This document shows, one piece after another, positions 10,993 to 36,185 of a stretch of DNA of 64,000 bases; the first letter of the stretch is position 1; the number at the start of each line of letters is the position of its first letter. The stretch is from an uncultured Solirubrobacterales bacterium (GTDB lineage Bacteria; Actinomycetota; Thermoleophilia; Solirubrobacterales; Solirubrobacteraceae), in the NCBI GenBank assembly GCA_963701195.1, contig OY969574.1, positions 1,884,446 to 1,948,445 on the forward strand, written 5' to 3'. The translations under genes were made by a program, and so were the position numbers. Below the pieces are notes generated by a model. The model was not told the origin of the DNA. It ran no database searches and was given only the letters and a program-made list of their open reading frames with translations.

Positions 10993-12640
10993 CTACATCA
11001 TCCCGCCCATGTCGGGCATGCCGCCGCCACCGCCACCGGCCGCTTCCTTCTCAGGCACCTCGGCGACGATCGCCTCGGTGGTGAGGATGTTCTTGGCGAT
11101 CGACGCCGCGTTCTGCAGCGCCGAACGCGTGACCATCGCCGGGTCGATGACGCCGGCGGCGACGAGGTTGACGACCTCATTGGTGGCCGCGTTGAGGCCG
11201 TGTCCTTTCTTGGCCTTGCGCACGTCGTTGACCACGACCGAGCCCTCCAGGCCCGCGTTCTCGGCGATCTGACGCAGCGGCTCCTCCAGGGCGCGCAGCA
11301 CGATGCGAGCGCCGGTGCGCTCGTCGTCGGAGCCGTCGGCGGAGTCGCCGTCGCCGTTGATGCTGACGGCCGCGGAGGCCTGCAGCAGCGCGACGCCGCC
11401 GCCCGGCACGATGCCCTCCTCGAGCGCCGCGCGCGTGGCCTGCAGTGCGTCCTCGACGCGGTGCTTCTTCTCCTTCATCTCGGTCTCGGTGGCCGCGCCG
11501 ACCTTCACGACCGCGACACCGCCGGAGAGCTTGGCCAGCCGCTCCTGCAGCTTCTCACGGTCGAAGTCCGAGTCGGTGTTCTCGATTTCGGCTTTGATCT
11601 GGTTGATGCGGCCCTTGATCGCCTCCGTGTCGCCGGCGCCGTCGACGATCGTCGTGTTGTCCTTGCCGACGACCACACGACGGGCGCGCCCGAGCTGGGA
11701 GACCTGCGTGTTCTCGAGCTTCAGACCCAGCTCCTCGGTGATCACCTCGCCCTTGGTGAGGATCGCGATGTCCTCGAGCATGCGCTTGCGGCGGTCGCCG
11801 AAGCCCGGCGCCTTGACCGCCACACCGGTGAAGGTGCCACGCAGCTTGTTGACGACGAGCGTCGCCAGCGACTCGCCCTCGACGTCCTCGGCGATGATCA
11901 GCAGCGGCTTGCCGCTCTGGATCACCTGCTCGAGCACCGGCAGCACGTCGCGCACGGAGCCGATCTTCTGGTTGGCGATCAGGATGTAGGGGTCCTCGAG
12001 GGTCGCCTCCATGCGGTCCTGGTCGGTGACCATGTACGGCGAGATGTAGCCCTTGTCGAACTGCATGCCCTCGGTGAACTCGAGGTCCATGCCAAACGTC
12101 TGGCCCTCCTCGACGTTGACCACGCCGTCCTTGCCGACCTTGTTCGATCGCGTCGGCGATCACGTCGCCGATCTCCTCGTCGCCGGCGGAGATCGTCGCC
12201 ACGCGCGCGATCTGCTCCTTGCCGGAGACCTCCTTGGACTGCGAGGCGATGTTCTGAACGACCTCCTCGACGGCCTTCTCGATGCCGCGCTTGAGCGCCA
12301 GCGGGTTGGCGCCGGCCGCGACGTTCTTGAGGCCCTGGCGGACGATCGCCTGGGCGAGCACGGTGGCGGTGGTGGTGCCGTCGCCGGCCACGTCGTTGGT
12401 CGCCGTGGCGACCTCGCGCACCAATTGCGCGCCCTGGTTCTCGAAGACGTCCTCGACCTCGATCTCACGCGCGATCGTGACGCCGTCGTTGGTGATCGTG
12501 GGAGCGCCGAACTTCTTGTCCAGCACCACGTAGCGGCCCTTCGGGCCCAGCGTGACCTTGACCGCGTTGGCGACCGCGTCCACGCCCGCCTCCAGCGACT
12601 TGCGCGCCTCGGCGTCGTACTTGAGCTCCTTGTGTGCCAT
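10993..12640 (-). CDS. groEL: Chaperonin GroEL with a single +1 frameshift at 12143-12144 (probably a sequencing artefact)
   Basis: Two ORFs (11555..12640 and 10993..12123) carry the N- and C-halves; removing one base restores ...[16 protein letters not shown]...; GGM tail; span is 549 codons plus 1 nt. Confidence 0.95.
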
Positions 12641-12669
12641 GTTTCTCAGTTCTCCTTGCGCCTTGCGCG

Positions 12670-12957
12670 TTAAGCGACCTTGGCGAGGACGTCCGACTCG
12701 CGTAGAACGAGCAGATCCTCGCCGTCGACCTTGATCTCGGTGCCGCCGTACTTGCTGTAGAGGACCTCGTCGCCCTCCTTCACATCCAGCGGGATGCGCT
12801 TGCCGTCATCGTCGAGGCGACCGTCGCCGGCGGCGAGGACCTTACCCTTCTGCGGCTTCTCTTTGGCTGTATCGGGCAGGACGAGACCGCTGGCGGTCTT
12901 CTCCTCCTCCTCGATCGCCCGCACGATCAGACGATCGCCCAGGGGCTTGAGCTTCAT
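12670..12957 (-). CDS. groES: Co-chaperonin GroES (95 aa)
   Basis: [12 protein letters not shown]...[16 protein letters not shown]...YSKYGGTE; GGAGG RBS upstream of ATG 12957. Confidence 0.97.
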
Positions 12958-13037
12958 CTTGCTTAGACCTCCACTATCGAGAGAATGTTGCTTGGGACGG
13001 GCATCTGCTTCCTCGCAGGAGGATCCCAGCCCCTCGA

Positions 13038-13064
13038 TTGGCACTCTCTAGCGTCGAGTGCCAA
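13038..13064. promoter_or_regulatory. CIRCE element 1 (HrcA operator)
   Basis: TTGGCACTC-N9-GAGTGCCAA, a perfect inverted repeat upstream of groES. Confidence 0.93.
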
Positions 13065-13073
13065 CGACCGCCC

Positions 13074-13101
13074 ACTATATAAGACGCCGACCGCGCGTCA
13101 A
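13074..13101 (-). promoter_or_regulatory. SigA-type promoter of groES-groEL
   Basis: -35 TTGACG (13101-13096), 16-bp spacer, -10 TATAGT (13079-13074), lying between the two CIRCE boxes. Confidence 0.7.
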
Positions 13102-13109
13102 GTAAAGAT

Positions 13110-13136
13110 TTGGCACTCTCGCCACGAGAGTGCCAG
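13110..13136. promoter_or_regulatory. CIRCE element 2 (HrcA operator)
   Basis: TTGGCACTC-N9-GAGTGCCAG. Confidence 0.9.
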
Positions 13137-13269
13137 CACCGCTCCGCTCGACGGTCCACAGCGTCCGCCGCTAGCGCCCACCACTCGCGCGCTTCGGACC
13201 TGCCTCAAGCGGGCTTCGGGCCTGCCTCGCGACCGCTTCGCGGGGCCACCTCTCGCTTCGGGTCACCTT

Positions 13270-13668
13270 CTAGTTCTGGGCGCCGCCGAAGCCCTTCATC
13301 GCCTCGGTCATGCCGGCGGGCTTGTCGACGATCTGCGAGAAGCGCACGACGGTGACCGTGTCCTGCAACGAGACCGCGCGTCCGTAGATCTGCTCGAGAA
13401 AGTGGATCAGCTCCTCGTGACGGCGGAACTCGGGGTTGTCGTGCTTGATGTCGCGCGGGGACAGCTCGCCCAGCTTGGTCACTTCGACCTGGTCGATGAC
13501 CGCCTCGAAGATGCGCTCGCGCGGCGAGTACTGGTAGCCGATCGTCACCAGCACGAGCTGATTCTTGCGGTACTTGTCCGACTTGTCGCCGAGCCGGATC
13601 GTCGCCGTCTTGCGCCCGCGCTTGAGCTCGTCGGCGAAGATCGTGGAGTAGAAGTTGAGAACCTGCAC
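13270..13668 (-). CDS. ASCH domain protein
   Basis: LNFYSTIFADELKRGRKTATIRLG ASCH signature; start set at GTG 13668. Confidence 0.8.
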   Translation of the reverse strand: MQVLNFYSTIFADELKRGRKTATIRLGDKSDKYRKNQLVLVTIGYQYSPRERIFEAVIDQVEVTKLGELSPRDIKHDNPEFRRHEELIHFLEQIYGRAVSLQDTVTVVRFSQIVDKPAGMTEAMKGFGGAQN

Positions 13669-13745
13669 GCCGCCGTGGAGGCTATCTAAAAGGAGGAGGG
13701 GCCCGGCTCGCCGGCCTGTTTGACCGGCCGCACCACCCTCTCTAT

Positions 13746-14180
13746 CTAGGAGGAGGACCCCGGCTCGCCGGCCAAAGTCGCCAGCGCGCGGTCGATGATC
13801 TCGCGTTCGCCGGCGTAGCTCAGCGCGGTGCGCGCCTCGCTGAGCGGGACCCAACGCGCCTCTTCTACCTCGTCGTCGTGATCCGCTGGGTCGCCTGCTG
13901 CGTAATAGAAGAGGAAGAAGGCCACGGTCTTGGGCACGGATCGCCCGCCGCGGCTGTACCAGTAGCGGATCTCGCCCAGCTCGCCGGCCAGCTCCACCTC
14001 GACGCCCCCCTCCTCGCGCACCTCCCGGATCGCCGCCTGCAGGTCGCTCTCGCCCGCGTCGGCGTGACCCTTGGGCAGTCCCAGCACGCGCGAGCCGTCG
14101 GCGCCGCGGCGCGTGGGCACGATCACGAGCACGTCCTCGCCGCGCACCACCACACCGCCCGCAGAGCGCTCAGAAGACAT
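13746..14180 (-). CDS. NUDIX hydrolase
   Basis: LPKGHADAGESDLQAAIREVREEGG Nudix box. Confidence 0.93.
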   Translation of the reverse strand: MSSERSAGGVVVRGEDVLVIVPTRRGADGSRVLGLPKGHADAGESDLQAAIREVREEGGVEVELAGELGEIRYWYSRGGRSVPKTVAFFLFYYAAGDPADHDDEVEEARWVPLSEARTALSYAGEREIIDRALATLAGEPGSSS

Positions 14181-14874
14181 AGGACCGCAACGCGTCCGGA
14201 TCGCGCACGACCAGCCGGCCGCGGCCCTGGGAGATCACACCTGCGCGCTCGAGCACCGCCAGAAAGCGGCTCGCGGACTCGCGCGAGCTGCCGGCGAGCT
14301 TGGCAAGGTCGGCCTGGGTGGCGACGATCGAGATGCCCTCGCCCTCGTCCTGCAGCCCGTCGGCCTGCGCCTGTGAGACCAGCTCGCCGAGGACTGCCGC
14401 GACGCGGCTCTGCACGCTCTGGAACGAGCGCCGCGCGAGGCGCTCGTTGGTCTCGCGCAGGCGCCGGCCGAGTGCGATCGCGAGGCGCATCGCGATCTGG
14501 GGGTGTTCGGTCATCAGGCGGCGCATGTCGGGGCCGAGCACCGCCACGACGTCGGTCGCCTCGAGCGCCTCGACGGTGGCGGAGCGCAGCTCGTCCTCGA
14601 ACAGCGCCAGCTCGCCGAAGAACTCGCCGGGCCCGAACGTGGCGAGGGTGATGATGCGCCCGTCGCCGTGCTGGTGCACCGCGCGGGTGTGCCCGGTGTG
14701 CACGACGTAGCAGGTGTCGCTGGCGTCGCCCTCGCGGAAAACGACCTGGCCGGCCTCGAAGCTGCGCGGCACCGCGAGCTGCGCGACGCGCTGCAGATCG
14801 TCGGCCTCGAGTGTCGCGAAGACCGGGACACGCGCCAGCAGCTCGACGATCTCCTCTGAGCTGGGACCTGCCAT
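14170..14874 (-). CDS. Crp/Fnr family transcriptional regulator
   Basis: cNMP domain FGELALFEDELRSATV; HTH TQADLAKLAGSSRESASRFL; start at ATG 14874. Confidence 0.92.
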   Translation of the reverse strand: MAGPSSEEIVELLARVPVFATLEADDLQRVAQLAVPRSFEAGQVVFREGDASDTCYVVHTGHTRAVHQHGDGRIITLATFGPGEFFGELALFEDELRSATVEALEATDVVAVLGPDMRRLMTEHPQIAMRLAIALGRRLRETNERLARRSFQSVQSRVAAVLGELVSQAQADGLQDEGEGISIVATQADLAKLAGSSRESASRFLAVLERAGVISQGRGRLVVRDPDALRSYVF

Positions 14875-14927
14875 CGGGCACGAGATAGCAGACGCCCGCG
14901 GCGCACCCGGACGGCGTCCCGCCAAGC

Positions 14928-15539
14928 ATGCCGGCCGCGGCGCTAGAAGCGCCCAGACCCCCTCGGCGGCGCTATCTTCAGGTCATGCGCGGGGCGCAGT
15001 TGCGAGGGAGACGGCGGGTGGGGATGGCGGCGATGGCGGCGGTGGGCGCGCTTGCGGCGAGCGCGCTCGTTCTCTGCGTGCCGCCGCCGGCGCGCGCCGC
15101 GAGCAAGCCCGCCTCCAAGCCCGCCTCGCCGGCGAGCGAACTGTGGGCCACCGTCGACCTGTGCAACACGACGCGGCGCCCCGACACGATCGGCATCCGC
15201 GGCTCGATGCCGGGCGACGGGCACCGCGGCGATGTGATCTACATGCGCTTCCTGGTGCAGAGCCTCGACGCCTCGACGCACCGCTGGAACTACGTCGGCG
15301 AGCACGCCGACTCGGGCTTCGTCGCGGTCGGCTCGGCGGCGCTGACGCGCCAGGCGGGACGCAGCTTCCAGTTCAAGCCGACCGCCACGCCGTTCACGCT
15401 GCGCGGGATGGTCGAGTTCCAATGGCACCACGCGGGGCGCACCGTGCGCAGCGTGTACCTGCCGACGACTGCCAGCCACACGAGCCTCGCCGGCGCCGAA
15501 CCGAAGGGCTTCAGCGCTGCGACGTGCGTGCTGCCCTGA
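14928..15539 (+). CDS. Secreted hypothetical protein (start may be 14985 or 15024)
   Basis: Hydrophobic signal ending PPARA, then a beta-rich domain with two Cys; fits the gap between opposite-strand genes. Confidence 0.6.
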   Translation: MPAAALEAPRPPRRRYLQVMRGAQLRGRRRVGMAAMAAVGALAASALVLCVPPPARAASKPASKPASPASELWATVDLCNTTRRPDTIGIRGSMPGDGHRGDVIYMRFLVQSLDASTHRWNYVGEHADSGFVAVGSAALTRQAGRSFQFKPTATPFTLRGMVEFQWHHAGRTVRSVYLPTTASHTSLAGAEPKGFSAATCVLP

Positions 15540-15594
15540 AGGGTGGCGCGGCCGGCCGGGAGGCCGTCTCGCGGCTTCGGCCGGGCCGCTTCGC

Positions 15595-16329
15595 TCACTC
15601 CGCGAACAGCCGCGGGTCGTTGGTGATGATGCCGTCGACGCCGAGCGCACTCAGGCGCGCGACCTGGGCGGGGTCGTCGACGGTCCACGCGTACAGCTCG
15701 CCGCCCCCTTCGGCGACGGCGCGCACGAGCGTGCGTGTGACCAGGCGCCAGTGCGCCATGATCGCGTCGAAGCGCCCCGCGCGCAGCGCCGCGCGGGCGC
15801 GGCCGGGCAGCCAGGCGCGCAGCGCGGCGAGCAGGCCGAGCGCGGGCAGCACGGTGAGGCGGCTCTCGGTGTAGTCGCGGCGCGCGCGGGGCACCGACCA
15901 GCCGACGCGCAGGCTCGGCTCGAGCGCGCGCATCGCGTCGAGGTCGTCGGGGTAGGTGCTGCTGACCAGCGCGCGCTCGATCATCCCGTGCTCGCGCAGC
16001 GCGTGCACGACGCGCGCGCCGTAGCCGGGCAGCTTGACGTCGACGTCCAGCTCGATCCCGGCGTACGCGTCGCCGGCGAGGTGCTCGAGTCCCTGCGCGA
16101 GCGTCAGCGGCTGCTGCGCGGCGGCCAGCGCGCCGTAGTCGTGGGCGAGCAGCAGCCGCCCGCTGCCGTCGGGCTGCTCGCTGAGCACGTCGAACTCGAT
16201 CATGTCCACGCCCGCACGCGCCGCCGCGTCGAAGCTGGCGAGCGTGTTGCCGGGCGCCAGGTGCGCGGCGCCCTTGTGGCCCACGCGCCGTGGCCGTACG
16301 CCGGAGCTGGTGGCGCCGGTGGCGCTCAT
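15595..16329 (-). CDS. Glycerophosphodiester phosphodiesterase family protein
   Basis: VGHKGAA..APGNT, IEFDV, YAWTVDD, GVDGIITNDP. Confidence 0.9.
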   Translation of the reverse strand: MSATGATSSGVRPRRVGHKGAAHLAPGNTLASFDAAARAGVDMIEFDVLSEQPDGSGRLLLAHDYGALAAAQQPLTLAQGLEHLAGDAYAGIELDVDVKLPGYGARVVHALREHGMIERALVSSTYPDDLDAMRALEPSLRVGWSVPRARRDYTESRLTVLPALGLLAALRAWLPGRARAALRAGRFDAIMAHWRLVTRTLVRAVAEGGGELYAWTVDDPAQVARLSALGVDGIITNDPRLFAE

Positions 16330-16391
16330 CGGCCCAGAATAGTTGTCGCGCAGGCGGCGCGGCGGATTCCCCGTGCAGGCAGCGCGGCGCC

Positions 16392-17711
16392 TCAGAGGCG
16401 CGTTTCGGCGTGCAGGCGCCGGCGACAGGAGTCGATCGTCTGCGCGGCGGCTTTCGGCCCGACATAGGGCGCGAGCAGGATGAACGCGAGGTGGTCGACC
16501 AGCGAGGGCAGGTACTTGACGCGTTTGCGCACGGCGTAGCTGCCGATCACCGTCCAGATGCCGCCCGCGGTCGTCTCGTGCGCGAGCAGCGGCGCGCGCG
16601 CCGGCTCGGGGGCGTGGTCGCGCAGCAGCGACGTCAGCCGCGCGAGCGTGGCGCCGATGCTCTCAACCACGTGCGGGCCGATCTCGTAGAGGTCGACGAA
16701 CGCCATTTTGACGAGGCCGGGGTGTGCCGCGAAGTGCTCGACGCCGGCCTTCAAGCCGAGGTAGGCGGCTTCCTCCCAGGTGTTCGCACGCGCCGCCGCG
16801 GCGCGTATGGCGGCGATCGTTTCGTCGTAGAACGCGTCGACGACGGCCAGGTAGCAGGAACGCTTGCTGGGGAAGTACTTGTGGAACGATTCGGTGGACA
16901 TCCCCGCGAACTGCGCGATCTGCGGGTCGGTCAGCTCGCGGTAGCCCTGGTCGAGCGTGAGGTGCACGAGCGCGCCGAGCACGCGCGTGCGCTTGTCCTC
17001 GCCTTCGAGGAAGCGCGTCGGCTCGGCGGGCATCTGCGGAACGGCGCCGGTGAGGCCGATCCGCGCGGCCGAGGAGCGGTAGGCGCTGACCCAGTCGAGC
17101 AGTTCGTCGGTCAGCATCGGCAGCTCCGTCTCGCGCCCGCTGCGCAGCCGGTCGAACAGCGCGTAGCGCACGCCGCCGACGATCGCGCGCGGGGCGAGCG
17201 GCGGCAGCGGCACGCCGTCGGGCGCGGCGCGGAAGCCGGCGGCGACCGCCCGTTCGAAGGCGACGGCCGAGCGCAGCATCCGTTCGCGGCTGGCGGCTCC
17301 GAGCCCGAGGCCGTCGATCAGCACGAGGCGCGTGGCCTTCGTGTTCTTGACCGAGTCCTCGATGAACGCCTGGCAGGAGCGGTGCACACGGTTGGCCCAC
17401 CCGCGCTCGCTCATCCAGCCTTCGAGCATCCGCTTCTTGGCGCGTGCGACCGCGATGTCGTAGGTCGCCAGGAAGCAGTCTTCCTTGTTGGCGAACTGCT
17501 CGTAGAACGCGCGCCGCGAGACACCGGCCAGGGCGATCACGTGGGCGACGGTGGTCGCCTTGTAACCCTGGCGATCGACCGCCTCGATCATCGCCCCGTA
17601 CAGCCTCGCGCGCTGATGGCGGGCGACTGCCTCCCGGCCCATGCCATGCGGTCCATGTGGCAGTCGCCTGTACATCGCGGTCAGCTCCCTCTCAGATCCG
17701 CTGAACCCCAC
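16392..17711 (-). CDS. TetR/AcrR regulator with two tandem TetR units
   Basis: HTH1 QGYKATTVAHVIALAGVSRRAFYEQF; HTH2 QGYRELTDPQIAQFAGMSTESFHKYF. Confidence 0.88.
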   Translation of the reverse strand: MGFSGSERELTAMYRRLPHGPHGMGREAVARHQRARLYGAMIEAVDRQGYKATTVAHVIALAGVSRRAFYEQFANKEDCFLATYDIAVARAKKRMLEGWMSERGWANRVHRSCQAFIEDSVKNTKATRLVLIDGLGLGAASRERMLRSAVAFERAVAAGFRAAPDGVPLPPLAPRAIVGGVRYALFDRLRSGRETELPMLTDELLDWVSAYRSSAARIGLTGAVPQMPAEPTRFLEGEDKRTRVLGALVHLTLDQGYRELTDPQIAQFAGMSTESFHKYFPSKRSCYLAVVDAFYDETIAAIRAAAARANTWEEAAYLGLKAGVEHFAAHPGLVKMAFVDLYEIGPHVVESIGATLARLTSLLRDHAPEPARAPLLAHETTAGGIWTVIGSYAVRKRVKYLPSLVDHLAFILLAPYVGPKAAAQTIDSCRRRLHAETRL

Positions 17712-17912
17712 GGTTGGGACACACTAATGGATTCTTCGGAGATTGCAAGTTAAATTTGTGGGATACAACCGAAGTTTTTGATAGTGCCTGCAAATACGGC
17801 AAATCGGTTTTGTCGCCCAGCTGGCGGAATCGCGCCGAGGAGGCGATTCGGGCACGGACAGGCGGTAGACCGTTGACTATGCAATCAGTCAGAATCGGTC
17901 CAAGTCCGCGTT

Positions 17913-20900
17913 TCAGGCGCTGAGTGTCAACCGCCGCGGACCGGCGCGGAAGCCGACCGCCGCGAGCGCCGCCTCCCAGCGCGAGCCGAGCACCGGCTCG
18001 CCGTCGACGCGCTCCAGCGCGAGCCGGCTCGGCGCGAGCCCGGCGCGGGCGTGCGCGGCCAGCGCCTGCAGGGCGAGCGTCACGCGCCGCTGCGCGGGGT
18101 CCTCGCCCGTCAGCAGCCGCAGCGCGCGGCCGCCGCGCTCGAGGTAGAGCACTGGCTCGGCGTCGACGAGCACGACGAGCGCACCCGGGGCACGCGCGGG
18201 GCTGGGGGCGGCGCGACCGGTCGCGCCCGCGGCGGCGCGCCGTGGCCAGGGTAGCGCGGCGCCGTAGGGCTGGGCGGGGTCCGTCGCGGCGAGCACCAGC
18301 GTGCGCGCGGCGGCTTCGTCGCGGTCGCCGGCCGGCCCCGCGCGAACGCCTGACACCGTCCCAACGCCCGCCCCCGTGCCCACCCCCGCTGCCGTGTCGC
18401 CGGTCGCTGCCGTGCCGCCCGCCGCAGGCCGCAGCGCGCGCAGCCGCTCGACGGCGCCGGCGAGCGCGAACTGCGCGCCGCCCAGACCCTCGACGAAGTA
18501 GCCGCGGCGCGCGACGCCAAGCGTCTCCAGGCGGCACAGCTCGGGGTAGAGCGCGGCGAAGCCGCCGGGCACGCCTTCGGCCAGCGCCAGCTCGCGCGTG
18601 AGGATGCCGTGGCGCTCGAGCAGCAGCTCGGCGTGCGCGCGCCGCCGGGCGGCGGGGTCCTCCGCGCCGGTGCCCGCGAACAGCGGCGCGGTCAATGACC
18701 AGCGGCCCGGCGGGTGGCGCGGCGCGCCGGCGGCGCGGCGGCGCGCGGAGAAGCGACCGGCGCTCGCCGCGCGGGGCCGGTCGCTGCCGGCGGCGAGTTT
18801 CAGGCGCGGGGCGCGCAGCGGGGCGAACGCGTCGTTGGTCGCCTCGCCGGCCCACACGAGGTCCCACAGCGCCTCCTGCAGCGTCTCGGCCGGATCGGGC
18901 AGGTCGGCGAGCAGGTCGGCGAAGAAGCCCGAGCCTGCCGCGAGACGGGCGCGGACGCGCTCGTGCGGGCACTCGGGACTGTCGCCGGACAGTTCCCCCC
19001 GCCGCGGCGGCGGCCCGAGCAGCGGGACGTCCTCGCGAAAGTAGAGCGCGACCCGCCCGTCGTTACGACCCAGCGCACCGGCGCCGACCCAGACGACCTC
19101 GCCGCTCGCACACAGCTCGTCGAGCCATGCGGTGGAGTAGGCGCCGAGGCGCCGGGGCAACACCTCGCGCTCCCACGTGCGGGGCGTCAGCGCGAGGCCC
19201 TGAAGGGGCACCAACTGCTCGCGCAAGCGCTCGAGGCCGACGGTCGCGGGAATCGGGGTGCTCATATCCCAGCCCGCCCCGGCTGTATGTCCATCGCCGC
19301 CCAAGCCATCCCGTACGCGCACACGCGCGCGCGGCGGGATGGTGGCGCCGGCTGCATACTCACCGGCAGTCCGGCCCCCCCACCGGTCGATGCCGTGCCA
19401 GGCGGGCAGGAAGGCGGCGTAGGCGCGGCGCTCGGCCGGCTCGATCTCGCGGCGCAGCGCCGCCAGCGAGGCGCGGCGCAGGCGGCGCAGGACCTCGACG
19501 TCGCACCACTCGCGGCCCTCGCCGCCGGGACGCAGCTCGCCACGGACGAGCGTGCCGGCGCGCTCCAGCTCGCGCAGCGCCAGCTCGACCGCGCCCGTGC
19601 CGGCCGCGCCGGCCGCGCCGGCGCCGGGCCCGTAGCGCGCGACCGGCGCCGCGGTGGCGAACGGGCCGTGCGTGGCGGCGTAGCGGGCGAGCAGGCGCAC
19701 GAGCGCGTCGGGGACCTCGGCGAGGAACGCGTCGGGCAGGCCGCCGGGCGGGACGGCGCCGAGCGCATCGCGGTAGAGACCGGCGTCGGCGGCGTCGACG
19801 TAGCGCTCCCGGCCGCCGATGCGCACGCGCACGGCGCGCCGTTCGCGCTCCAGAGCAGCTAGCAGCGCGCCGGCGTCGACGCCGGCGTGCACGCGCTCCG
19901 ACGCCTCGGCGGCGCTGAGGTCGCCGAGCAGGCGCAGCGCGTCGTGCAGCTCGTCACGGGTGGCCGCGCGGGCGTGCTCGGCGCGGCGCTGCAGGTCGTC
20001 CTCGACGCGCGCGAGCGCACCGGGGTCGATCAGCTCGCGCAGCTCCTCCCGGCCCAGCAGCTCGCGCAGCAGGTCGCGGTCGAGCGAGAGCGCGGCGGCG
20101 CGGCGCTCGGCGCTCGGCGCGTCCCCCTCGTACATGTACGTCGCGACGTAGTCGAACAGCAGCGAGGAGGCAAACGGCGAGGCGGTGGCGGTCTCGACCT
20201 GCACGACGTCCAGCTCGCGGCGGTGCAGCTTGGCCAGCAGCTCGCGCAGCCCCTGCAGGTCGAGCACGTCGCGCAGGCACTCGCGGTAGGCCTCGAGCAC
20301 GATCGGGAAGTCGCTGTAGCGGCGCGCGACCTCGAGCAGGCTCTGGGCCTTCAGGCGCTGCTGCCAGAGCGGCGTGCGCTTGCCCGGGTAGGCGCGCGGG
20401 ATCAGCAGCGCGCGGGCGGCGGCCTCGCGAAAGCGCGCGCCATAGAGCGCGCTGTTGCCCAGCTCGGCGACGACGAGGTCCTCCAGCTCGTCGGGGTCGA
20501 TCAGCACCAGCTCCTCGCCGGGCAGCCGATCGCCGTCGGGCAGGTGCACGGCGATCCCGTCGTCGGACCAGATCGCGTCGGCCTGCAGGCCGTGCTCACG
20601 GCGCAGGCGCGCGCTCAGCGCGAGACCCCAGGCGGCGTGCACGCGCCCGCCGTAGGGGGAGAGCACGCACAGCCGCCAGTCGCCGATCTCGTCGCGGAAG
20701 CGCTCGAGCACGATCGTGCGGTCGCTCGGCAGCACACGCGTGGCGGCCTGCTGCTCGCGCAGGTAGTCGAGCAGGTTGCGCGCGGCGCGCGCGTCGAGGT
20801 CGTAGTCGCGCTGCAGCGTCTCCGACTCCTGCGCGACGGCCCAGCGCGCGAACGCGCCGATCGCGAGACCCAGCTCCTTGGGGCGCCCGACGCCCTCGCC

Positions 20901-26757: not shown

Positions 26758-27382
26758 CTACGCGAAAGCCCAGGGCAGCGCGTCTTCGACTTTGCCTAAG
26801 ACGCTCGCTTCTACTTTTGCTTCGGCTTCACCGATCTTCAATTCTCCTGGTGAAGAAATTAGCGCGATAAACGCTTCCGATAACCGCAGATCCTGACCCT
26901 GTGGCGCTAAAACGGTATACGTACCCGTTATCGCCTGCTTACCTTCTGCGGCGCATTTTCTTTCCGGCTTGAATTCAAATGTAGCAAAAATTTTACCTGT
27001 ATCAGGTTTGGCTATAGCTTTTGCTGCTAAGACGCCGTTCTAAGGTCACTAAGCCTTCGACGGGGAGCGAACGTATTGCAGAGCTAGTAAGTTCACATTC
27101 TGTTGGTGTCGATTTGCATTCTAAATCCACAAGGCTAGTAGCTAACAATTTATCTGGCTCGCTTACCACGCCGCCAACAATTTCCAACTTCGGACATCTA
27201 ATTGTCAACGTACTCCAGGATACTACACTTTCTTTGTCACTGACCGTCCGTGGCACAACCGCTGCCGATCCGGCAAGTAACGAGCCTGCCACTAACCAGC
27301 TCGCGCGCGCCGAACTTGCGACACCAACGCCGCACGCGAGCGCCGCAAGCAACGCCACGGCGAGCGCTTTCGCTCTAGACAT
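26758..27382 (-). CDS. Small secreted 4-Cys family protein (member 1) with a +1 frameshift at 27038-27039 (likely artefact)
   Basis: Signal peptide ...SARA|SWLVAGSLL; removing one base continues ...LDGVLAAKAIAKPDTGKIFATFEF...LPWAFA*; span is 208 codons plus 1 nt. Confidence 0.8.
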
Positions 27383-27563
27383 ACCGCTGGTCTCCTTTCG
27401 ACTTCACAAGCGCCCGTAGTCCGAACGCCGGCCGACCTGCCGCGCGTTCAGCGACGATCAAGCCACCCAACGTCTTACACCACCCGCAAGCTAATGTCAA
27501 CAGACAGGATTAATCAGCTATACGGCTCGCAGCGCAGCTAGAAGATAGCGAGTTCAACGGGCA

Positions 27564-27603
27564 GGGCCCTGCCCCACGCTCTACGCGGCGTGAGACAGGG
27601 CCC
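27564..27603 (-). terminator. Hairpin just downstream of the 293-aa gene
   Basis: GGGCCCTG...CAGGGCCC stem with an inner CACGC/GCGTG pair. Confidence 0.35.
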
Positions 27604-27611
27604 AAGATGCG

Positions 27612-28493
27612 TTAGTGCGAGTTGACCGATGCTACGGGAGACGTGTACAGCGTGTTTTCGAGGACCGCGACGTTCTTACCGGATTCTGCCGGCAGGCCCG
27701 CGACCAGCGAGCTGTTGATGATCGGGTCGACGAGCACCGACAGGGCGCCGCCGCAGCCGGTGGCTTCGGGAGCAGCCCACGTATTGTCGACCAGCTCGTT
27801 ACCGGTGATTTCGACCAGTTCCCCTTCTTCATGCAGCGAAGGAACGCCCGCTTTGCCTTCGATCGATTCGTAGGGCGCCGGCGGGCTGGTCGCGCCAGTC
27901 GTCAGGTTCCAGATAATCGGCGAGCTGTCCGAGCCCACGTAGCACGAGCTACCGAGAAACGGGTTTTCGAGGTGGATCTTGACCGGCAGCTTCAGCGCGG
28001 TCCCTTCCTTGACCAGCAGGTTGAAGCTGCTCAGTTCGATGTCGCTCGCGGGCTCGGCCAATTCGAGTGTCGCGTTAACGCCGGTGAGGCCGTTTTCAAG
28101 CACCAGCGCAAGCGCGATTTTTACGAGCAGCGGCGCTGATTCCGGCGGCACCAAACCGACCAGCCCACCGGGCACCGGCTGCGGCGTTTTCGAGAGCGTT
28201 TCGCCGTTGGTGGCGCCGTAGAAGCTCTCAAAGCCGGTTTCTTCGTTTTCCTTGGAGACCCCACCCTGCAGGATCACCGGGTTGACGATCGGCGTCGTCT
28301 TGTTGCCGAGCACGACCTTGCCGCTATTCGTCACCGAATAGAGGCATTTTCTGACGCCTTCCGTCGTCGACGGACACTCGTTGAACTTCGCAAACGCGCC
28401 TTCGTGCGCGAGCGCGGCGGCAGGCAGGCAGATCGCCGCCAAAGCCGCGACGACCGCACCCGTCAAGCCACGTACAACAGCTCGTAACAGCAC
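27612..28493 (-). CDS. Secreted 4-Cys protein of unknown function (~290-aa family, member A)
   Basis: Signal ...PAAALA|HEG; FNECP...RKCLYS, SSCYVGS, ATGCGG; paralog of 30838..31707. Confidence 0.8.
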   Translation of the reverse strand: MLLRAVVRGLTGAVVAALAAICLPAAALAHEGAFAKFNECPSTTEGVRKCLYSVTNSGKVVLGNKTTPIVNPVILQGGVSKENEETGFESFYGATNGETLSKTPQPVPGGLVGLVPPESAPLLVKIALALVLENGLTGVNATLELAEPASDIELSSFNLLVKEGTALKLPVKIHLENPFLGSSCYVGSDSSPIIWNLTTGATSPPAPYESIEGKAGVPSLHEEGELVEITGNELVDNTWAAPEATGCGGALSVLVDPIINSSLVAGLPAESGKNVAVLENTLYTSPVASVNSH

Positions 28494-28571
28494 AGCATTT
28501 CCTTTCTCGAGATTACAGTGCCAGGAACTCCATCCCTCAATCCGTCCTCAAGTCGTGCGGGGCCTTCACCG

Positions 28572-29237
28572 TCACCTGCGCGTGTAGTGGAAGAACAAAA
28601 AGCCCTCGAATTCCGCGGTGTGCACGGCTTCGTGCCGCAGCGCGGCGGCGTTGAAGCCCGGCTTGACGTGCAGGTGGCGCGGGAGCGCGAACAACACAGT
28701 CAAGTAGTCTTCGTGGTGGTGGGGCGGGCACAGCGAGTACGCGGTGTGCCCGGAGCTGTTTGTCCCGAGGATCGCGCCTGGCGGCAGCGTGCCCGCGGCC
28801 GTTCCGGTCGAGTTGGGGTCGATCCCGGCGACCGCCCAGTCGATATGGAGTTGGTTGTTGAGCGGCTTGAGGTTGATGACGTCGAGCATCAGTTCCACCG
28901 TGCCCGGCGGAATGCCGCGCCAGCTCAGCGGCGGGGAGATGTTCGCTCCGTCGCACGTGTAGCGCGCCGGCAGCGCTTCCGCCTGCAGCGCTGGGCTGGA
29001 GATTTTGACCTCGGCGACGGTCGGTACCGATGCGTGGGCGTGCTGGGAGGTATGCGTAGTTGCCGGCGATGTGGATGCCGGCTGCGTAGTGGTCTGCGTC
29101 TGCGCTGTCGTAGCCGCTGCCGAGGGCTGGCTGCTCGAGGCGGCGGTGCTCGAACCGCCACCGCATCCGGTGGCGAGGGCAGCGGCGAGCAGTGCGCAGA
29201 GACCGGCGAGCGCGTGGCGTTTGGCAGGGCTACCCAT
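28572..29237 (-). CDS. Lipoprotein with a degenerate YbhB/YbcL (PEBP-like) domain
   Basis: Lipobox LATG|C, Thr/Ser linker, LPARYTCDGANISPPLSW...YSLCPP. Confidence 0.75.
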   Translation of the reverse strand: MGSPAKRHALAGLCALLAAALATGCGGGSSTAASSSQPSAAATTAQTQTTTQPASTSPATTHTSQHAHASVPTVAEVKISSPALQAEALPARYTCDGANISPPLSWRGIPPGTVELMLDVINLKPLNNQLHIDWAVAGIDPNSTGTAAGTLPPGAILGTNSSGHTAYSLCPPHHHEDYLTVLFALPRHLHVKPGFNAAALRHEAVHTAEFEGFLFFHYTRR

Positions 29238-30069
29238 AGCTGCCTACCAGCAATCCCGTATGACGAGCGATCGCTTTGGCCTGCATACGCAGTGCAGCCG
29301 GTTCGAAACCGGATTGCGGCGAGAGGCTTTTCGGCAGCGCAAAGAGAATGAAGACGTACGTTTCGCGTCCGCCGGTGGGGCAGAGCGAGTACCGGGCCTG
29401 GCCCGAGCTGCCACGCCCGACGACCGCGCCAGATGGCACCTGGCCGGCCTGCATCCCGGTGAACGTCGGGCTGATCCGGGCCACCGCCCACGGGAACGCA
29501 AGTTTGCCGTCGACCGGTTGGGTCGCGATTACGAACAGCGCGAGTTCCTGCGTGCCATTGGGCACGCCCCGCCACTGCAACGGCGGCGATTCGTCCGCCC
29601 CGCGGCAGGTGTAGCGACTCGCGATCGTGCTCGCCGACGAACTCGCAGTGTGCGCGATCCCGGAACTCGCGAGATAGATATCGGTGACGGGCAGCACGGC
29701 GCGTTCGGCCGCCGAGATTTTGGGCTCGGGCGGCCCGTTCGGCGCCGGCAAAACGATGTGCGCGTGCCGGCGGCGCACCTTCGCGGTGTGGCCACCAGCG
29801 CCAGCCCCGCGGTTGGGGGTGACTGCCGCACTGGTCGTCGTGGGGGACCGGCTGGCGGTCGTCGCACGTGCGGCCGTCGTCGTGCTCGTCGCGGTCGCGG
29901 TCGCGCCGCCCGTATTCGAACTGGTCGGGCCGCTCGATTCGCCGCAGCCGGCGAGCGCAAGCGCGAACGCCGATAACAGCAGCGCAATCGCTGCTGGCTG
30001 CTGGCGTGCCGGGCGGCTGGAGCAAGGCCTGCCGCGCTTTGAATCTGAGTGCCGCGTGTGGTTGCGCAT
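29230..30069 (-). CDS. Lipoprotein with a degenerate YbhB/YbcL (PEBP-like) domain
   Basis: Lipobox LAG|C, Thr linker, IASRYTCRGADESPPLQW...YSLCPT; overlaps the next gene. Confidence 0.75.
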   Translation of the reverse strand: MRNHTRHSDSKRGRPCSSRPARQQPAAIALLLSAFALALAGCGESSGPTSSNTGGATATATSTTTAARATTASRSPTTTSAAVTPNRGAGAGGHTAKVRRRHAHIVLPAPNGPPEPKISAAERAVLPVTDIYLASSGIAHTASSSASTIASRYTCRGADESPPLQWRGVPNGTQELALFVIATQPVDGKLAFPWAVARISPTFTGMQAGQVPSGAVVGRGSSGQARYSLCPTGGRETYVFILFALPKSLSPQSGFEPAALRMQAKAIARHTGLLVGSYG

Positions 30070-30106
30070 CGCGATTCGTGATCTCCTCTCGCTATCCGGT
30101 ATTGCG

Positions 30107-30140
30107 ACGACGGGCCGGCAACGCTTTGCCGGCCCGTCGT
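30107..30140 (-). terminator. Intrinsic terminator-like hairpin after the 204-aa gene
   Basis: Perfect 15-bp stem ACGACGGGCCGGCAA / TTGCCGGCCCGTCGT with a 4-nt loop. Confidence 0.7.
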
Positions 30141-30175
30141 GCTGCTCTCTATGCTTCTGCTACTGGCTGTCCGTC

Positions 30176-30790
30176 CTACCCTTCGAGGTGTTCGTCGCGA
30201 TGTTTTTCGAATGCTTCAGTGGGAAAGACGCCGTTCCATTCGACCTGACCCGAGCCGACAAGCAGCGCGGTTTTCGTCTTTTCAAACGTTTCTTTGTCGA
30301 ATGTGGCGCGTTCTTCGCCGTTTTCGAGCACTCCGCCGGCCGAGCCGGAAACGCGGATACGTTCACCGGAAAGCGCGCAGAGTTCGCCCGAATAGGAGAT
30401 CCCCACGGCAACTTTTTCGACGACCAGATATTCCTTGCCTTCGACCGTCGTGATGTGGCCGGGCCACGGAAGTTTTTCCGCAGTGATGCTTTTCACCGAA
30501 CAGTTTTTGTTGTTGGTGGTGCATTCGTACAGCGGCAGTTCCGTGATTTCGGTCTTGCCATCGCCTTCTTTGTTCGAGATTTTCATGTTGTAGAGGAAAT
30601 GTTCGCACGTCGTCGTCGCGCCGGGAATCGTAAGGCTGCTGCTGAACGCCGCCCCGACAGCCGTTTCCGTGCCCGACAGTTCCGTGCCATTGAACTTCCA
30701 TACCGACGATGCGGTCGCCGTCGCAGCCGTCGCCGCGCACGCGAGCGCGGCGACGACGGTCAGGACCGCCAACCGTCCTGTAGTTCTCAT
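30176..30790 (-). CDS. Small secreted 4-Cys protein, divergent member of the ~200-aa family
   Basis: Signal ...ATATA|SSVWKFNG; Cys spacing (TTC, YEC, KNC, ELC) mirrors the family. Confidence 0.7.
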   Translation of the reverse strand: MRTTGRLAVLTVVAALACAATAATATASSVWKFNGTELSGTETAVGAAFSSSLTIPGATTTCEHFLYNMKISNKEGDGKTEITELPLYECTTNNKNCSVKSITAEKLPWPGHITTVEGKEYLVVEKVAVGISYSGELCALSGERIRVSGSAGGVLENGEERATFDKETFEKTKTALLVGSGQVEWNGVFPTEAFEKHRDEHLEG

Positions 30791-30837
30791 CTGAATATCA
30801 TCTCCTGGTAGAAAACGTTATGGAAATCGTGGCGGTC

Positions 30838-31707
30838 TTAGTGTGCGTTGACGGACCCGACAGTCGCAGTGAAGATCGTGTTCTTCAACTTTGCGACGTT
30901 CGTTTCCGCGGCGGCCGGCAGACCGACCTCGGCATCGACGATCGGGTCGACAAGGAACGAAATGATCCCGCCGCAACCCGTCGCTTCGGGGGCTTTCCAG
31001 TCGTTTTCCACGAGTTCATTTTCTTTGATTTCGATGAGTTCTCCTTCTTCCTTGAGTTCCGGAATGCCCGCTTTCCCTTCGATCGATTTAGCCGCAGGCG
31101 TCGGGCCGGTCGTCAGGTTCCAAATGATCGGCGAACTGCTCGAACCGATGTAGCACGACTTACCCAGGAACGGGTTTTCGAGATGCACCTTGACCGGCAT
31201 GGAAAGCGCGATGCCTTCCTTGATGGTGAGGTTGAACGTGCTCAATTTGATTTCGCTCGCCGGCTTTGCCAGTTCGAGTGTCGCGTTGAGTTCGAAGAGT
31301 TTATTGTGAATGAAGTATTCCTCGAGCAGTTTTACCAGGAACGGCTCGCCTGCTTCCGGCACGATCCCGAGCAGTCCACCTGGCACGGGCTGCGCTGCCT
31401 TCGACAGCGTTTCGTTGTTGCTGGCGGCCGTGAAAGGCTCGAAGCCCGTTTCTTCGTTTTCCGCGCCGACCCCGCCCTGCAGAATAACTTTGTTGACGAT
31501 CGGCGTCGTCTTTTTGCCGAGCACGATTTCGCCGCCGTTCGTGATCGAGTAGAGGCATTTCCTGACGCCCGTCGTTTTTGAGGGGCACTGGGCGAATTTC
31601 GTCCATACCGTTTCGGCCGACGCGGTCGCGGACAGACAAAGCGCGGCCAAAGCCGCCCCCAGCAGCGCCCGGAGGCAAAGCCTCAGAGTCCTTCTCTGCA
31701 TTCGCAT
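30838..31707 (-). CDS. Secreted 4-Cys protein of unknown function (~290-aa family, member B)
   Basis: Signal ...SATASA|ET; FAQCP...RKCLYS, KSCYIGS, ATGCGG. Confidence 0.8.
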   Translation of the reverse strand: MRMQRRTLRLCLRALLGAALAALCLSATASAETVWTKFAQCPSKTTGVRKCLYSITNGGEIVLGKKTTPIVNKVILQGGVGAENEETGFEPFTAASNNETLSKAAQPVPGGLLGIVPEAGEPFLVKLLEEYFIHNKLFELNATLELAKPASEIKLSTFNLTIKEGIALSMPVKVHLENPFLGKSCYIGSSSSPIIWNLTTGPTPAAKSIEGKAGIPELKEEGELIEIKENELVENDWKAPEATGCGGIISFLVDPIVDAEVGLPAAAETNVAKLKNTIFTATVGSVNAH

Positions 31708-32043
31708 GAAGCGTATCCCTTTCGTTTATCGAGTGATCACAGAGCAATTACGACTTCAACCGTCTTGTTTTACTGGCAGCTTGCGCTCCCCTTTCATGAC
31801 CCGATCGCGGACGATGACCCGATCGCAGACGCCGAGACGTGCGCAGACGGCGATCTGGCCGCCAGCACGCAGGCTGCATAAGTCCTACAGGACCACGCTG
31901 TGAGTGTCAACGATCGGGCGATCTGCGCTGAGTGTAAACGCCGTCGACCGACCGGCGAGGAATGCCAATCCTCATTACCAAAGCCAAATCCATTCTTAGA
32001 CCCAAGCTCTGAGACGATGAGAAACATCGGTTCTGAAAGGCCC

Positions 32044-35000
32044 TTATAGTGCTATGTTCTTGTGTCTGGCGGCGACTTGTTTGCCGACGGTGAGCGTGAG
32101 TGTGAGTGTGAGGTGGGTCTTGTGGTGTCGGTGCGCCGCGGTCCGTCTGCTCGCCGTGTACGCGAGGGTGTAGCTGTGCTTGCCCGGGCTCACTGCGCGT
32201 CGTACGAGCGTTTTCAGGCCGTTGCCCGCGATCCGCAGGCGGCCCTTCATCGTGGTCTTGACGGTGACGGTCAGCCCGTGCTTGCCGGCCTTCGCTTTGA
32301 CGAGCTTGACTTCGGGCTTGGCCGGCGGGCAGCCTTCGATCTTGAGTTTGACGTTTTCGTTGTGCGGGAGGCCGTTCTGGGCGGTCATGTCAACCGGGGC
32401 GACCATTTCCTGCCCGCACTGGCTGGCCTGGGCGCGTCCGACCGTGCGTGCGCTGGTGAACTGCGAGTACTGCTTGTGCGGGAGGCTCGCTTCAAACGTG
32501 CTGAACGGCGCGTCCGGGACCGACGGGAACGTGACCTTCAGCACGCTCTTGGAGGACACCGACGATTCGCCTTCGACTACGAGGGTAACGCCTTCACCCT
32601 GAAGCACCATCGCGACATTCGGAAATTTCGCGCTCCCATACGAGACGAGATAGATCGGGCCGCTCAGCGGATTGGAGAGGATCGGCGTGTGCACCGTCGC
32701 GGTGCCGATACTCGACGCAGCCGGACACGTAGCGGGGTTAGCTTCAAATGTTGCCGCCAGGCAGGCCTGGCGCAGCGTTTCCAGCCTGACCGGCAACTGC
32801 GTCGGGAACGAGATCGTGGTCTTGGCGATGTTGGACTGCGTCACCGACGGGTAGGCGATCTTGACGTTCACGCCCGTGCCTTCGGCTTTGCTCGCCTTCG
32901 CTTCGGTCGCGATCGTCGTCGTCGGCGTAAACGACAGCGCACGGCAGTCCTGTACCGCCAATGGGCTCGAAACGTTCTCGCGCGCACCTTCGGCAGAGCC
33001 GATCGTGCCAGTCGTCTGCAACGACTGGCAGCTCGTGGGGTTCAGCACGAATTCCTGGTTGCTGATCGAGAGCTGCGCGAAGCGGATTCGCAGCGGCACG
33101 CCGTCGAGTATCTGCGGGAAGTCGCTGCTCGTCGCGTCGACCTGCGCGGTGCGCGGGTTGACCGTCAGCGCGGCGCGCACCAGCACATAGCCGAGGTTGA
33201 ACGGTCCCGCAGTGGCGGGCACGACGATCGACAGGCCGAACGGCGCGCCTGCGTAGGGGCCGGTGAAGTAGACCTTGCCCGTCACGTAGTAGGGCTCGCT
33301 GCCCGACCCCACCGCGACAGTCGCTGTCCCGATCTGGCTCTTCGGGGGGCAGACTTCGGCAGCCTGCGAAGCGAGCGCAGCCGGGCACTGTTCCACCCGC
33401 GAAACGTACGCCAGCAGCCCGGGCGGCAGCGTCGTGGCGAGCGAGAGGATGCTCTGTTCGCGATCGCGCCGTTCCATCGTGAGCACGAACGGGCTGGTGG
33501 CGCCCGCCGCGTGGCTCGTCGTATCGGCCGTGAACGACGGCGCGAACGGCGGCGTCACAGGGCACGGTTCGCCCGCTCCGTTCCAGTCGACGTTGAAGTA
33601 GTCCGACGGGAACGCTTCGCCGGTGTACGGCGAGGCCCACGAGCTGATCTGGCCTTCGCTGACCGCATTCCCGCACGTCTGCGGGTTGGCGAGCGGCGCG
33701 CGCGCGCCGCCGGCCGTGGAGACCGTCAGGCTCGAGAGCGGGAACTGCGGGTTTTCTTCGAAGATCGTCGTGATCCGGCCGGTTTCCGGGTCGACCGACG
33801 CGTGCCCGGCGAGCTTGATCACGACACCCGATTCCGGCGCCTGCAGTTCGAGGTAGACCCTGAACAGCCTGCCCTCAGCCGCGTACTTCGGGCTGCATTC
33901 TTCCTGACCCAGGCCGCCGCATTCGGGCTCAGCGACAAATAGATGCCCTTCCAGCTGATCGTGAAGCAGTGGCGTGCTCGCCCTAACCGTCGCGATCTGC
34001 GACGCTTCCGGGCAGTGCCCCGCGGCAAGCCGCTTGAGGCCGTCGGCGCCCATTTCTTCGGATTCTTCGCCTTCGATATTGATCCCTTGCGGTCCGGATT
34101 CCTGGCAGGCCTCGAGCCCGTTCGCGCCCGAAGGCGAGATCGTCGTGCCCGCGGGCAGCGCGACCGTGACATTCTTGACCGGCGGGGTACCCAAGCCCGT
34201 CCCGCCGTTGGGCGCCTGCGGGACCTTCAGGCCCACTTCGTAACCCGACGGCGCAGCCGCTTGCGTCGTCTGCGGCTTGACACTGAGCGTCGAAGTGAAG
34301 CTCAACAGGTTGCAGCCTTCGAGCTTGGAGAACGCGAGAGCGGAGCCTTTGAGCATCACGCCCGGTTCCTTCCAAGTGTCAAATTCCACCTGGGCTTCCC
34401 TCGCGGACTGATCCGCTTCGCAGTCGCTCGGATCCGTCACGAACGCGCCGCGGTCAAACGTGGATTCTTCCTGGTTTTCGCGGATGTAGCGTTCTTCGAT
34501 ATCTCCGTAGAACGTCGCGATCGCACCGACAAACGACGCAATGCCGGCTATGTCTGGAACGGCGACACGCACGACATAGTGCCCATCGCGTCTCACCACG
34601 GTCGCGTACATGAAGAACGTAAGATTGTTGAATGCAAACGCGAACTCCGCTGCATAGCCCTTCTCCGGGGTAACGCTGTAAATCCCGCGTACGTGCGTCG
34701 GATCGACACTGTGCGCGAACACGTGGTTCAAGATCATCGGCAAAATCGATCCCGCTCGGCTCGACTGCGGACAGCCACTCAACGCGTTCTTTGCTTCCAC
34801 AAGCGACGCCGGGCACTGATTCAGAACAGTCGGGTTACCGAGGAACCCCAGCGGCAGATAGAATTCGAGATTCTTCATCGGCTCCACCGGTTTAAATTCT
34901 TCGATATTGCTCACATTTTCATCACGCATATCATTTGCGGTAAACGTCGTGACGGTAAGATTTGGATGCCCAGCCGCCTGTCGAAACGGTTCACCAGTCG

Positions 35001-35574
35001 GCCCTGTCTCCTGAAACCCAAATTGCTCTACTCCCGAAGGAGCAGTTTCGTGTTCACCCCCAACACGCGTGACCGCTTCATCGCCGGCGCTTTTAGCTCC
35101 ACCACCACTCACGCTCGCGACATCGCGCAGCAGACCTTCAATGTGGCTTTCGACTTCATATTCCACGGTCACGACCATGAACCCGGTCGGGACCGTAGGT
35201 TCAAGGTAATGGCATTCAACTTCAGTGCCACTCAACAAGGAACATTCCGATGCTTCTTCAGGTTCCGCCCTGGTAGCAGTAACCTTCAACCCGGCCGGCA
35301 GCACATCTTTCACCGTCACTTCGCCACCACTCGCCAACCCACCGATGTTCTCCACAATCACATAATATCGACCCTTACGATTCACGCCCTGCGGCTGAAC
35401 AGTGGGAAACGCCACAACCGTCGCCTGCCACGCCGGCGCCGCCGCACCAGTCACAGCAACAGCCCGCACCGCACCAAACCACAGACCACAAACACACAGC
35501 GCTACCCACACACCGGCAAAACGCGACCCACGACCTGCGGTCAACGATCGGCACCCGAAAACGCGAACCATCAC
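32044..35574 (-). CDS. Large (1176-aa) secreted modular protein, copy A
   Basis: N-terminal signal, four C..CPxxSx(I/A)(G/A) modules, basic C-terminal tail; start overlaps the upstream stop (TGATG). Confidence 0.85.
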   Translation of the reverse strand: MMVRVFGCRSLTAGRGSRFAGVWVALCVCGLWFGAVRAVAVTGAAAPAWQATVVAFPTVQPQGVNRKGRYYVIVENIGGLASGGEVTVKDVLPAGLKVTATRAEPEEASECSLLSGTEVECHYLEPTVPTGFMVVTVEYEVESHIEGLLRDVASVSGGGAKSAGDEAVTRVGGEHETAPSGVEQFGFQETGPTGEPFRQAAGHPNLTVTTFTANDMRDENVSNIEEFKPVEPMKNLEFYLPLGFLGNPTVLNQCPASLVEAKNALSGCPQSSRAGSILPMILNHVFAHSVDPTHVRGIYSVTPEKGYAAEFAFAFNNLTFFMYATVVRRDGHYVVRVAVPDIAGIASFVGAIATFYGDIEERYIRENQEESTFDRGAFVTDPSDCEADQSAREAQVEFDTWKEPGVMLKGSALAFSKLEGCNLLSFTSTLSVKPQTTQAAAPSGYEVGLKVPQAPNGGTGLGTPPVKNVTVALPAGTTISPSGANGLEACQESGPQGINIEGEESEEMGADGLKRLAAGHCPEASQIATVRASTPLLHDQLEGHLFVAEPECGGLGQEECSPKYAAEGRLFRVYLELQAPESGVVIKLAGHASVDPETGRITTIFEENPQFPLSSLTVSTAGGARAPLANPQTCGNAVSEGQISSWASPYTGEAFPSDYFNVDWNGAGEPCPVTPPFAPSFTADTTSHAAGATSPFVLTMERRDREQSILSLATTLPPGLLAYVSRVEQCPAALASQAAEVCPPKSQIGTATVAVGSGSEPYYVTGKVYFTGPYAGAPFGLSIVVPATAGPFNLGYVLVRAALTVNPRTAQVDATSSDFPQILDGVPLRIRFAQLSISNQEFVLNPTSCQSLQTTGTIGSAEGARENVSSPLAVQDCRALSFTPTTTIATEAKASKAEGTGVNVKIAYPSVTQSNIAKTTISFPTQLPVRLETLRQACLAATFEANPATCPAASSIGTATVHTPILSNPLSGPIYLVSYGSAKFPNVAMVLQGEGVTLVVEGESSVSSKSVLKVTFPSVPDAPFSTFEASLPHKQYSQFTSARTVGRAQASQCGQEMVAPVDMTAQNGLPHNENVKLKIEGCPPAKPEVKLVKAKAGKHGLTVTVKTTMKGRLRIAGNGLKTLVRRAVSPGKHSYTLAYTASRRTAAHRHHKTHLTLTLTLTVGKQVAARHKNIAL

Positions 35575-36185
35575 ACACCCCTCCGACCCAGCCGCTTACC
35601 CTGCACCCTCAACGCACGACCCCGTCGCTTCCTATGGACCTTACTGCTCTTCTTACGGGTCTTTTTGCTCTTTGACGGCTTGCCAGGCTTTTTGGTCACG
35701 CTCGCAGGCCGCGTACCAGAACCCCGTCGCCGACGGAAAGTCGCCTTCAGCGGCGCTCGCTGCCACGCCAGTCCCGCCACCCACCGGCACGGCACCTTCA
35801 CAAGTGCTCGGTACGCATACAGCGGACTCGCCCTGTACAGGCCCAGGCGGAAACCCACCACCAACACGCGCATCATAAATATCACGCTGAAACCCATCGA
35901 CGTCACTAGTCAACAACGGATCCGCCGTCGATACCAGAACATTCGAACCATCTTCATCCATCCCATAAACGAAAGCACCACACGTAGACCCTTTATTCAA
36001 CTGCACATCACGACCATCCGACAACAAATACACTTTACCCGCAGAAATTGGGCCTTCACTACGAAACTCATACACACTTTTACACCCAAGTGACGACGCA
36101 GACCGAGCACGTGGACTCAATTCACCCGCCGTCTGAAACACCACCGTCCTACCATCAGACGACACATCCAACCGATTTTCAGAGG
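32073..36185. repeat. Direct repeat block 1, copy A (about 4.1 kb), near-identical to 40403..44514
   Basis: Translated ORFs are identical in several frames at offset 8330; the only difference I saw is the extra A at 35720-35721. Confidence 0.9.

Follow-up and report, generated by a model that had tools for sequence, protein, structure and literature searches.

Frameshifts at a Tth111I-type palindrome in an uncultured Solirubrobacterales genome are probably a methylation-linked assembly artefact

Several described enzymes act on the 9-bp palindrome GACNNNGTC: Tth111I cuts it (PMC7140217), and M.Osp807II places N6-methyladenine (6mA) on the A of its GAC half, i.e. G(6mA)CNNNGTC (PMC6212791; PMC10810934; MicrobeMod preprint). 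Modification-mediated errors have been reported in nanopore assemblies at Dam/Dcm sites (Wick et al. 2019; PMC6591954) and at novel motifs (Chiou et al. 2023, PMC10687267; Lohde et al. 2024, PMC11610573). Here we analyse a 64,000-nucleotide stretch of DNA (hereafter the window) from an uncultured Solirubrobacterales bacterium, positions 1884446-1948445 of a single 4,191,459-bp contig with 69% G+C. In this window groEL, a small secreted gene and one copy of a duplicated large gene each contain a one-nucleotide insertion relative to their homologues. The insertion falls in the palindrome shared by Tth111I, PflFI and M.Osp807II and doubles the same A that M.Osp807II methylates; an earlier note on this DNA had identified the word as the Tth111I recognition sequence, which agrees with PMC7140217. 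Our results make it very probable that the frameshifts are a methylation-linked assembly artefact and that the genes are intact in vivo.

The three sites, and an intact duplicate of one of them, read as the earlier note had described. The groEL gene (10993-12640, minus strand) carries the extra base at 12136-12145, which reads GACCTTGTTC in the window sequence, so that the gene strand has GAAC-AAG-GTC where the closest relatives have GAC-AAG-GTC (Asp-Lys-Val). The codon-model frame switch lies at 12143/12144, the Pfam domain Cpn60_TCP1 is split at the site (1-149 in the upstream piece, 158-488 in the downstream piece), and the protein reads ...ADAIE before the break and KVGKDG after it. The GroEL relatives, with 95-98% identity, place the organism in the Solirubrobacteraceae, and the closest proteins (96-98% identity) read IADAIDKVG across the site; on the two closest contigs the DNA is ATCGACAAGGTC, one base shorter than in the window and lacking the extra A. 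Since 11 congeners have GAG-AAG-GTC here, the identity of the doubled base was at first ambiguous, but the closest GroEL sequences read GAC and the intact word is therefore GACAAGGTC. The 376-amino-acid downstream fragment (10993-12123, minus strand) stands as its own entry in the public protein collection, i.e. the frameshift has already propagated into annotation.

The small secreted gene (26758-27382, minus strand) has its extra base at 27031-27040, which reads GACGCCGTTC in the window sequence, and loses its frame 93 codons before the common stop of its family. In the alignment all four paralogs (37990-38640, 39170-39800, 46330-46980 and 47520-48300) are without the extra base, showing a one-nucleotide gap there, and continue for about 95 codons to the shared stop, and both half-sites are present only in the broken copy; its local codon test margin is 1.26. 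The large gene is present twice. Copy A (35571-37980, minus strand) has the extra base near its 3' end at 35719-35728, which reads GAACCCCGTC in the window sequence, and its open frame stops at 35653 rather than 35571. Copy B (gene 43901-46219) is intact at the matching position, 44049-44057 (minus strand; GACCCCGTC in the window sequence). Between 32073-36185, which includes the break in copy A, and 40403-44514 all 4112 positions are identical save the extra A at 35720. The break removes only the last ~50 residues, a loss kept small by the start of the next gene at 35574. The large gene has been labelled a beta-propeller, and this label is unconfirmed, with zero Pfam matches. The two copies belong to an 8.3-kb duplication in which 4112 bp are 100% identical while elsewhere the two units agree at only about 90%; the identical tract is a recent gene conversion. 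Codon-model scans found no further frame break in the window, with low sensitivity in short, atypical genes.

We then scanned the whole chromosome for the same lesion. Codon models were trained on long open reading frames, and the chromosome was segmented with the Viterbi algorithm into six coding frames and non-coding DNA. Same-strand frame switches away from stop codons were retained, and those within 20 nucleotides of GAACNNNGTC or its complement GACNNNGTTC were counted as on-motif. An earlier, cruder frame test based on G+C at third codon positions (GC3) and a local codon test had given modest enrichment only, because gene boundaries inflate their background, and were replaced by the Viterbi segmentation with its stop-codon filter. 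Of the +1 switches, 17 of 120 are on the motif when a single codon model is used and 20 of 176 when two are used, where about one is expected; no -1 switch falls on the 10-mer in either version (0/101 and 0/155). Between 16 (one model) and 19 (two models) of the on-motif switches lie outside the window, and since the motif was fixed beforehand they are an independent replication. The earlier note had put the density of the word at about one per 3 kb and had judged three of three by chance to be very unlikely; we count 1625 intact GACNNNGTC sites, one per 2.6 kb, and the further switches outside the window, with the specificity test below, bear the judgement out.

Twenty-two sites are well supported: 20 by the Viterbi scan and two window sites that are visible only against paralogs. 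The Viterbi-supported 10-mers start at genome coordinates 28362, 413022, 903501, 1277190, 1301304, 1466283, 1475108, 1896581, 1970177 and 2045978 in the first half of the list and 2317273, 2482688, 3094281, 3198251, 3305307, 3325287, 3492209, 3769097, 3842253 and 4177921 in the second; the two found by paralog comparison start at 1911476 and 1920164. Eight additional sites (113026, 511700, 985381, 1112685, 1969426, 2046824, 2273352 and 3157130) appear in the weaker local test only and bring the total to up to 30, i.e. about 1.5-2% of roughly 1650 sites. Neither double insertions (GAACN3GTTC) nor motif deletions were found at frame switches. The breaks cut through conserved proteins: the match to Ketoacyl-synt_C is divided into 1-85 and 86-119 precisely at site 2045978, site 4177921 separates Lyase_1 from ASL_C2 in argininosuccinate lyase (argH), site 3198251 separates TREH_N from Glyco_hydro_15 in a GH15 enzyme, and several other Pfam domains terminate at the motif. 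At the ketoacyl synthase and argH sites every congener has GAC, and five have the intact GACNNNGTC.

The insertion is highly specific to the palindrome. Among words made of GAAC and three free bases, frame switches occur at 17 of 715 when the far triplet is GTC and at 21 of 31,050 when it is any of the 63 others (odds ratio 36, Fisher p = 1.5e-18). Of the doubled-base variants only GAAC is affected, and of the spacers only that of three nucleotides; the identity of the spacer bases is irrelevant, while all six palindromic bases are needed. This need for a half-site six to eight bases off, with free bases between, resembles a protein reading a DNA palindrome.

A possible alternative is that the basecaller or polisher mishandles this word of 9-10 bases irrespective of modification, in which case the genes would still be intact. 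The error is indeed sequence-specific, modern pore models span ~9 bases, which might be just enough to take in both the A and the distant GTC, and there is a weak effect of flanking context (A at position -1 in nine sites against 2.3 expected). However, free spacer bases together with six required palindromic ones point to protein-like recognition, and the identical 4.1-kb contexts of the large gene were called differently, as might happen if read support hovered near a threshold. With the comparative evidence given below, we regard such a context error as unlikely. Alternatively, the ribosome could take GAAC as a single Asp codon in a programmed +1 recoding, which would restore Asp at several sites. 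In the sense of the messenger RNA, however, the extra base falls in the Asp half at 15 and in the Val half (GTTC) at 12 of the 27 sites that could be typed, which excludes a four-base codon; what matters is a palindrome in the DNA, whichever strand is read, and ~690 other GAACNNNGTC/GACNNNGTTC words stand in normal in-frame reading. Recoding thus has almost no probability.

The strand pattern bears on whether the insertions could be real mutations. At 22 of 30 sites (~3:1) it is the GAC half on the plus strand that has the doubled base, and this bias is found on both replichores (16:6 and 6:2, as set by an origin near 4.14 Mb and a terminus near 2.81 Mb) with no dependence on gene strand. It follows the arbitrary plus strand of the FASTA file, which a polisher can read but a cell cannot, and therefore indicates an artefact. 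If an in vivo process doubled the A at GACNNNGTC, 20-30 genes would be true recent pseudogenes. An intact paralog of one broken copy and a second groEL-like locus (a weak match at 4053844) suggest that some losses could be tolerated. Yet argH, the ketoacyl synthase and other conserved genes would all have been lost by an identical lesion with no other decay, the bias would have to track an arbitrary strand on both replichores, and the identical lesion recurs in an unrelated metagenome-assembled genome (MAG; G053, see below). Furthermore, Tth111I cuts GACN^NNGTC, and fill-in repair would double one of the spacer bases and leave the A single. Real mutation is accordingly very improbable as an explanation. 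In one specific form of it the doubled A would be real, and methylated or nicked GACNNNGTC would act as a hotspot for insertions in vivo, tied to the cell's own restriction-modification system. We consider this, too, very improbable; if it were true, a single mutational mechanism would have produced dozens of pseudogenes of very recent origin in each of two lineages, this one and that of G053.

We also looked for the error in other assemblies. G053, an independent Solirubrobacterales MAG, carries a gene pair 83% identical to the candidate restriction-modification pair of the window (see below), and 4 of its 40 +1 switches over the 0.77 Mb read are on the 10-mer. All four lie on a 0.69-Mb contig, where 0.3 are expected. 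Two give clean domain splits, in EAL (3-129 / 132-236) and in Lactamase_B: on contig CAVTGW010000002.1 insertions at GAACNNNGTC interrupt a GGDEF-EAL gene (L163:7201) and a metallo-beta-lactamase-fold gene (L157:7002). Four congeners without the pair, all few-contig MAGs, have 0, 0, 1 and 0 on-motif switches in 400 kb each, whereas each of the ten 400-kb pieces of the present genome (G000) has at least one. This chance level over 1.6 Mb and 728 intact sites, in a set that includes one assembly (G002) with homopolymer-linked errors, argues against a context error that is independent of methylation.

The motif is also avoided in this genome. The count of GACN3GTC (1625) relative to that of the in-phase word GACN6GTC (2425) gives a ratio of 0.67, against 0.94-1.03 in five congeners. 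We considered whether the missing ~800 sites could be substitution miscalls (GAC>GAG or A>G) and rejected this: there is no excess of GGCN3GTC (ratio 1.0) and hence no A>G surplus at the motif, and the excess of GAGN3GTC is common to the congeners (1.13-1.20 against 1.26 here). In 157 kb aligned to one congener (G005), GTC>GTG accounts for the surplus losses (25 against 10 in reverse), and all 22 single changes are synonymous and located in the Val half. The mirror-image Asp>His change expected of random miscalls was found zero times in the same 157 kb. Synonymous losses in the Val half without Asp>His indicate selection against the word rather than error. The avoidance arose within one genus via synonymous changes and implies exposure to a nuclease with this specificity; such selection in this genome only is a further point against a purely contextual error.

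We then focused on genes in the window that could account for methylation of GACNNNGTC. A candidate modification methyltransferase of 364 amino acids (51052-52146, minus strand) matches the N6_N4_Mtase family (PF01555, E 9.5e-12), appears to be of the beta class and has CcrM, M.MboIIA, M.RsrI and DpnA as relatives in the PDB. It can be likened by length only to M.Osp807II (355 amino acids). The gene is overlapped by that of a candidate restriction endonuclease of 301 amino acids (50172-51077, minus strand), which has zero Pfam or NCBIfam matches. Its invariant FPDVVL...GIELKGWY resembles a PD-(D/E)xK motif, from which a nuclease role is predicted. A predicted amino-methyltransferase gene thus lies beside a candidate nuclease gene, as in a type II system of the Tth111I kind. 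Among species-representative genomes the 301-residue protein has 348 relatives; methyltransferase homologues (60-77% identity) are widespread and often on the same contigs as homologues of the partner gene, and the methyltransferase/nuclease-like pair co-occurs on many contigs across phyla. Among 40 congeners the partner gene is present in only one (G048). Pfam, NCBIfam, PDB and the named genomes gave no informative enzyme name, and Olsenella, Thermus and Pseudomonas are absent from the best 80 loci. The two informative assemblies that carry the pair, G000 and G053, both show the error pattern, and the pair at 50172-52146 is probably the source of the methylation. Another conceivable source is a type I hsdM-like methyltransferase gene (60027-60989, plus strand, genome coordinates 1944472-1945434; PF02384, E 3.4e-100), but it fits poorly: type I enzymes recognize asymmetric two-part words, not short palindromes.

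Two side observations from the same scan concern other words. Runs of six or more C/G bases are over-represented at -1 switches (11/101 against a background of 1.2%); this is ordinary long-read deletion error at C/G homopolymers and a second source of false pseudogenes. GAGCTC is the most under-represented 6-bp palindrome genome-wide (479 observed against ~2340 expected, ratio 0.20) and lies within 15 nucleotides of 6 of 176 +1 switches (0.7 expected; e.g. near 970288, 1147195 and 1548367), so that it may be a second restriction or methylation word. The variant GAGCTGC has no direction bias, and near +1 switches only intact GAGCTC is enriched.

Based on these findings, the following mechanism may be proposed. 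The organism would methylate both strands of GACNNNGTC, most likely to G(6mA)CNNNGTC, and the likely source would be a type II restriction-modification system of the Tth111I type, probably the pair in the window. During long-read sequencing of native DNA, the modified base would disturb the signal so that a share of reads calls GAC as GAAC; consensus building and polishing would then keep the insertion at a small part of the sites, where it would show as a +1 frameshift in a gene that is intact in vivo. The assembly is a single 4.19-Mb contig with -1 switches enriched at C/G homopolymers, its relatives are long-read soil MAGs, and it may itself derive from native long reads. Like published nanopore errors, the insertions recur genome-wide at one presumed methylation word, are absent in relatives and homologues, affect a subset of sites, persist through consensus building and create false variants or pseudogenes. 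Here, then, we infer the methylation of GACNNNGTC, its type and position, the responsible methyltransferase and the long-read platform.

Several observations weigh against this interpretation or parts of it. (i) Only about 2% of the sites are affected, and the effect of context is weak. (ii) In the literature, nanopore errors tied to methylation are mainly substitutions (PMC10687267; PMC11610573), mostly purine/purine or pyrimidine/pyrimidine confusion, whereas here the error is always a one-nucleotide insertion that doubles the presumed methylated A. (iii) The comparison of G053 with the congeners spans assemblies of unrecorded sequencing chemistry. (iv) Six other PF01555 matches in the genome loosen the link to the pair in the window. 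(v) The congener G048 has the partner gene (C16:15632-16531, 84% identity), yet its motif ratio is 0.96 with no depletion; this could reflect recent gene acquisition, an inactive gene or a pair with another specificity. (vi) The motif ratio in other carriers of the pair is uneven (0.74-1.21).

On balance, the insertion is best explained as a consensus error because it is motif-specific, always doubles the same A, is biased to the plus strand, is absent in relatives and recurs in G053. The interpretation offered in the earlier note thus stands with high confidence: the error is tied to the motif, the genes are almost certainly intact, and the host most likely methylates the word. About 20-30 genes, three of them in the window, are almost certainly broken only in the assembly, by one extra A in GACNNNGTC. 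The frameshifts do not belong to the organism itself, whereas avoidance of the motif and the presumed Tth111I-like methylation do.

In brief, some 20-30 genes of a public genome, including groEL, argH and the ketoacyl synthase, are mis-annotated as fragments and should be treated as intact, and the mis-annotation extends to at least one further MAG of the Solirubrobacterales. Even without reads, the errors in a finished assembly can by their pattern reveal a methylation word and probably the restriction-modification genes responsible. For the organism, our results predict that this uncultured soil actinobacterium has an active system of the Tth111I kind.

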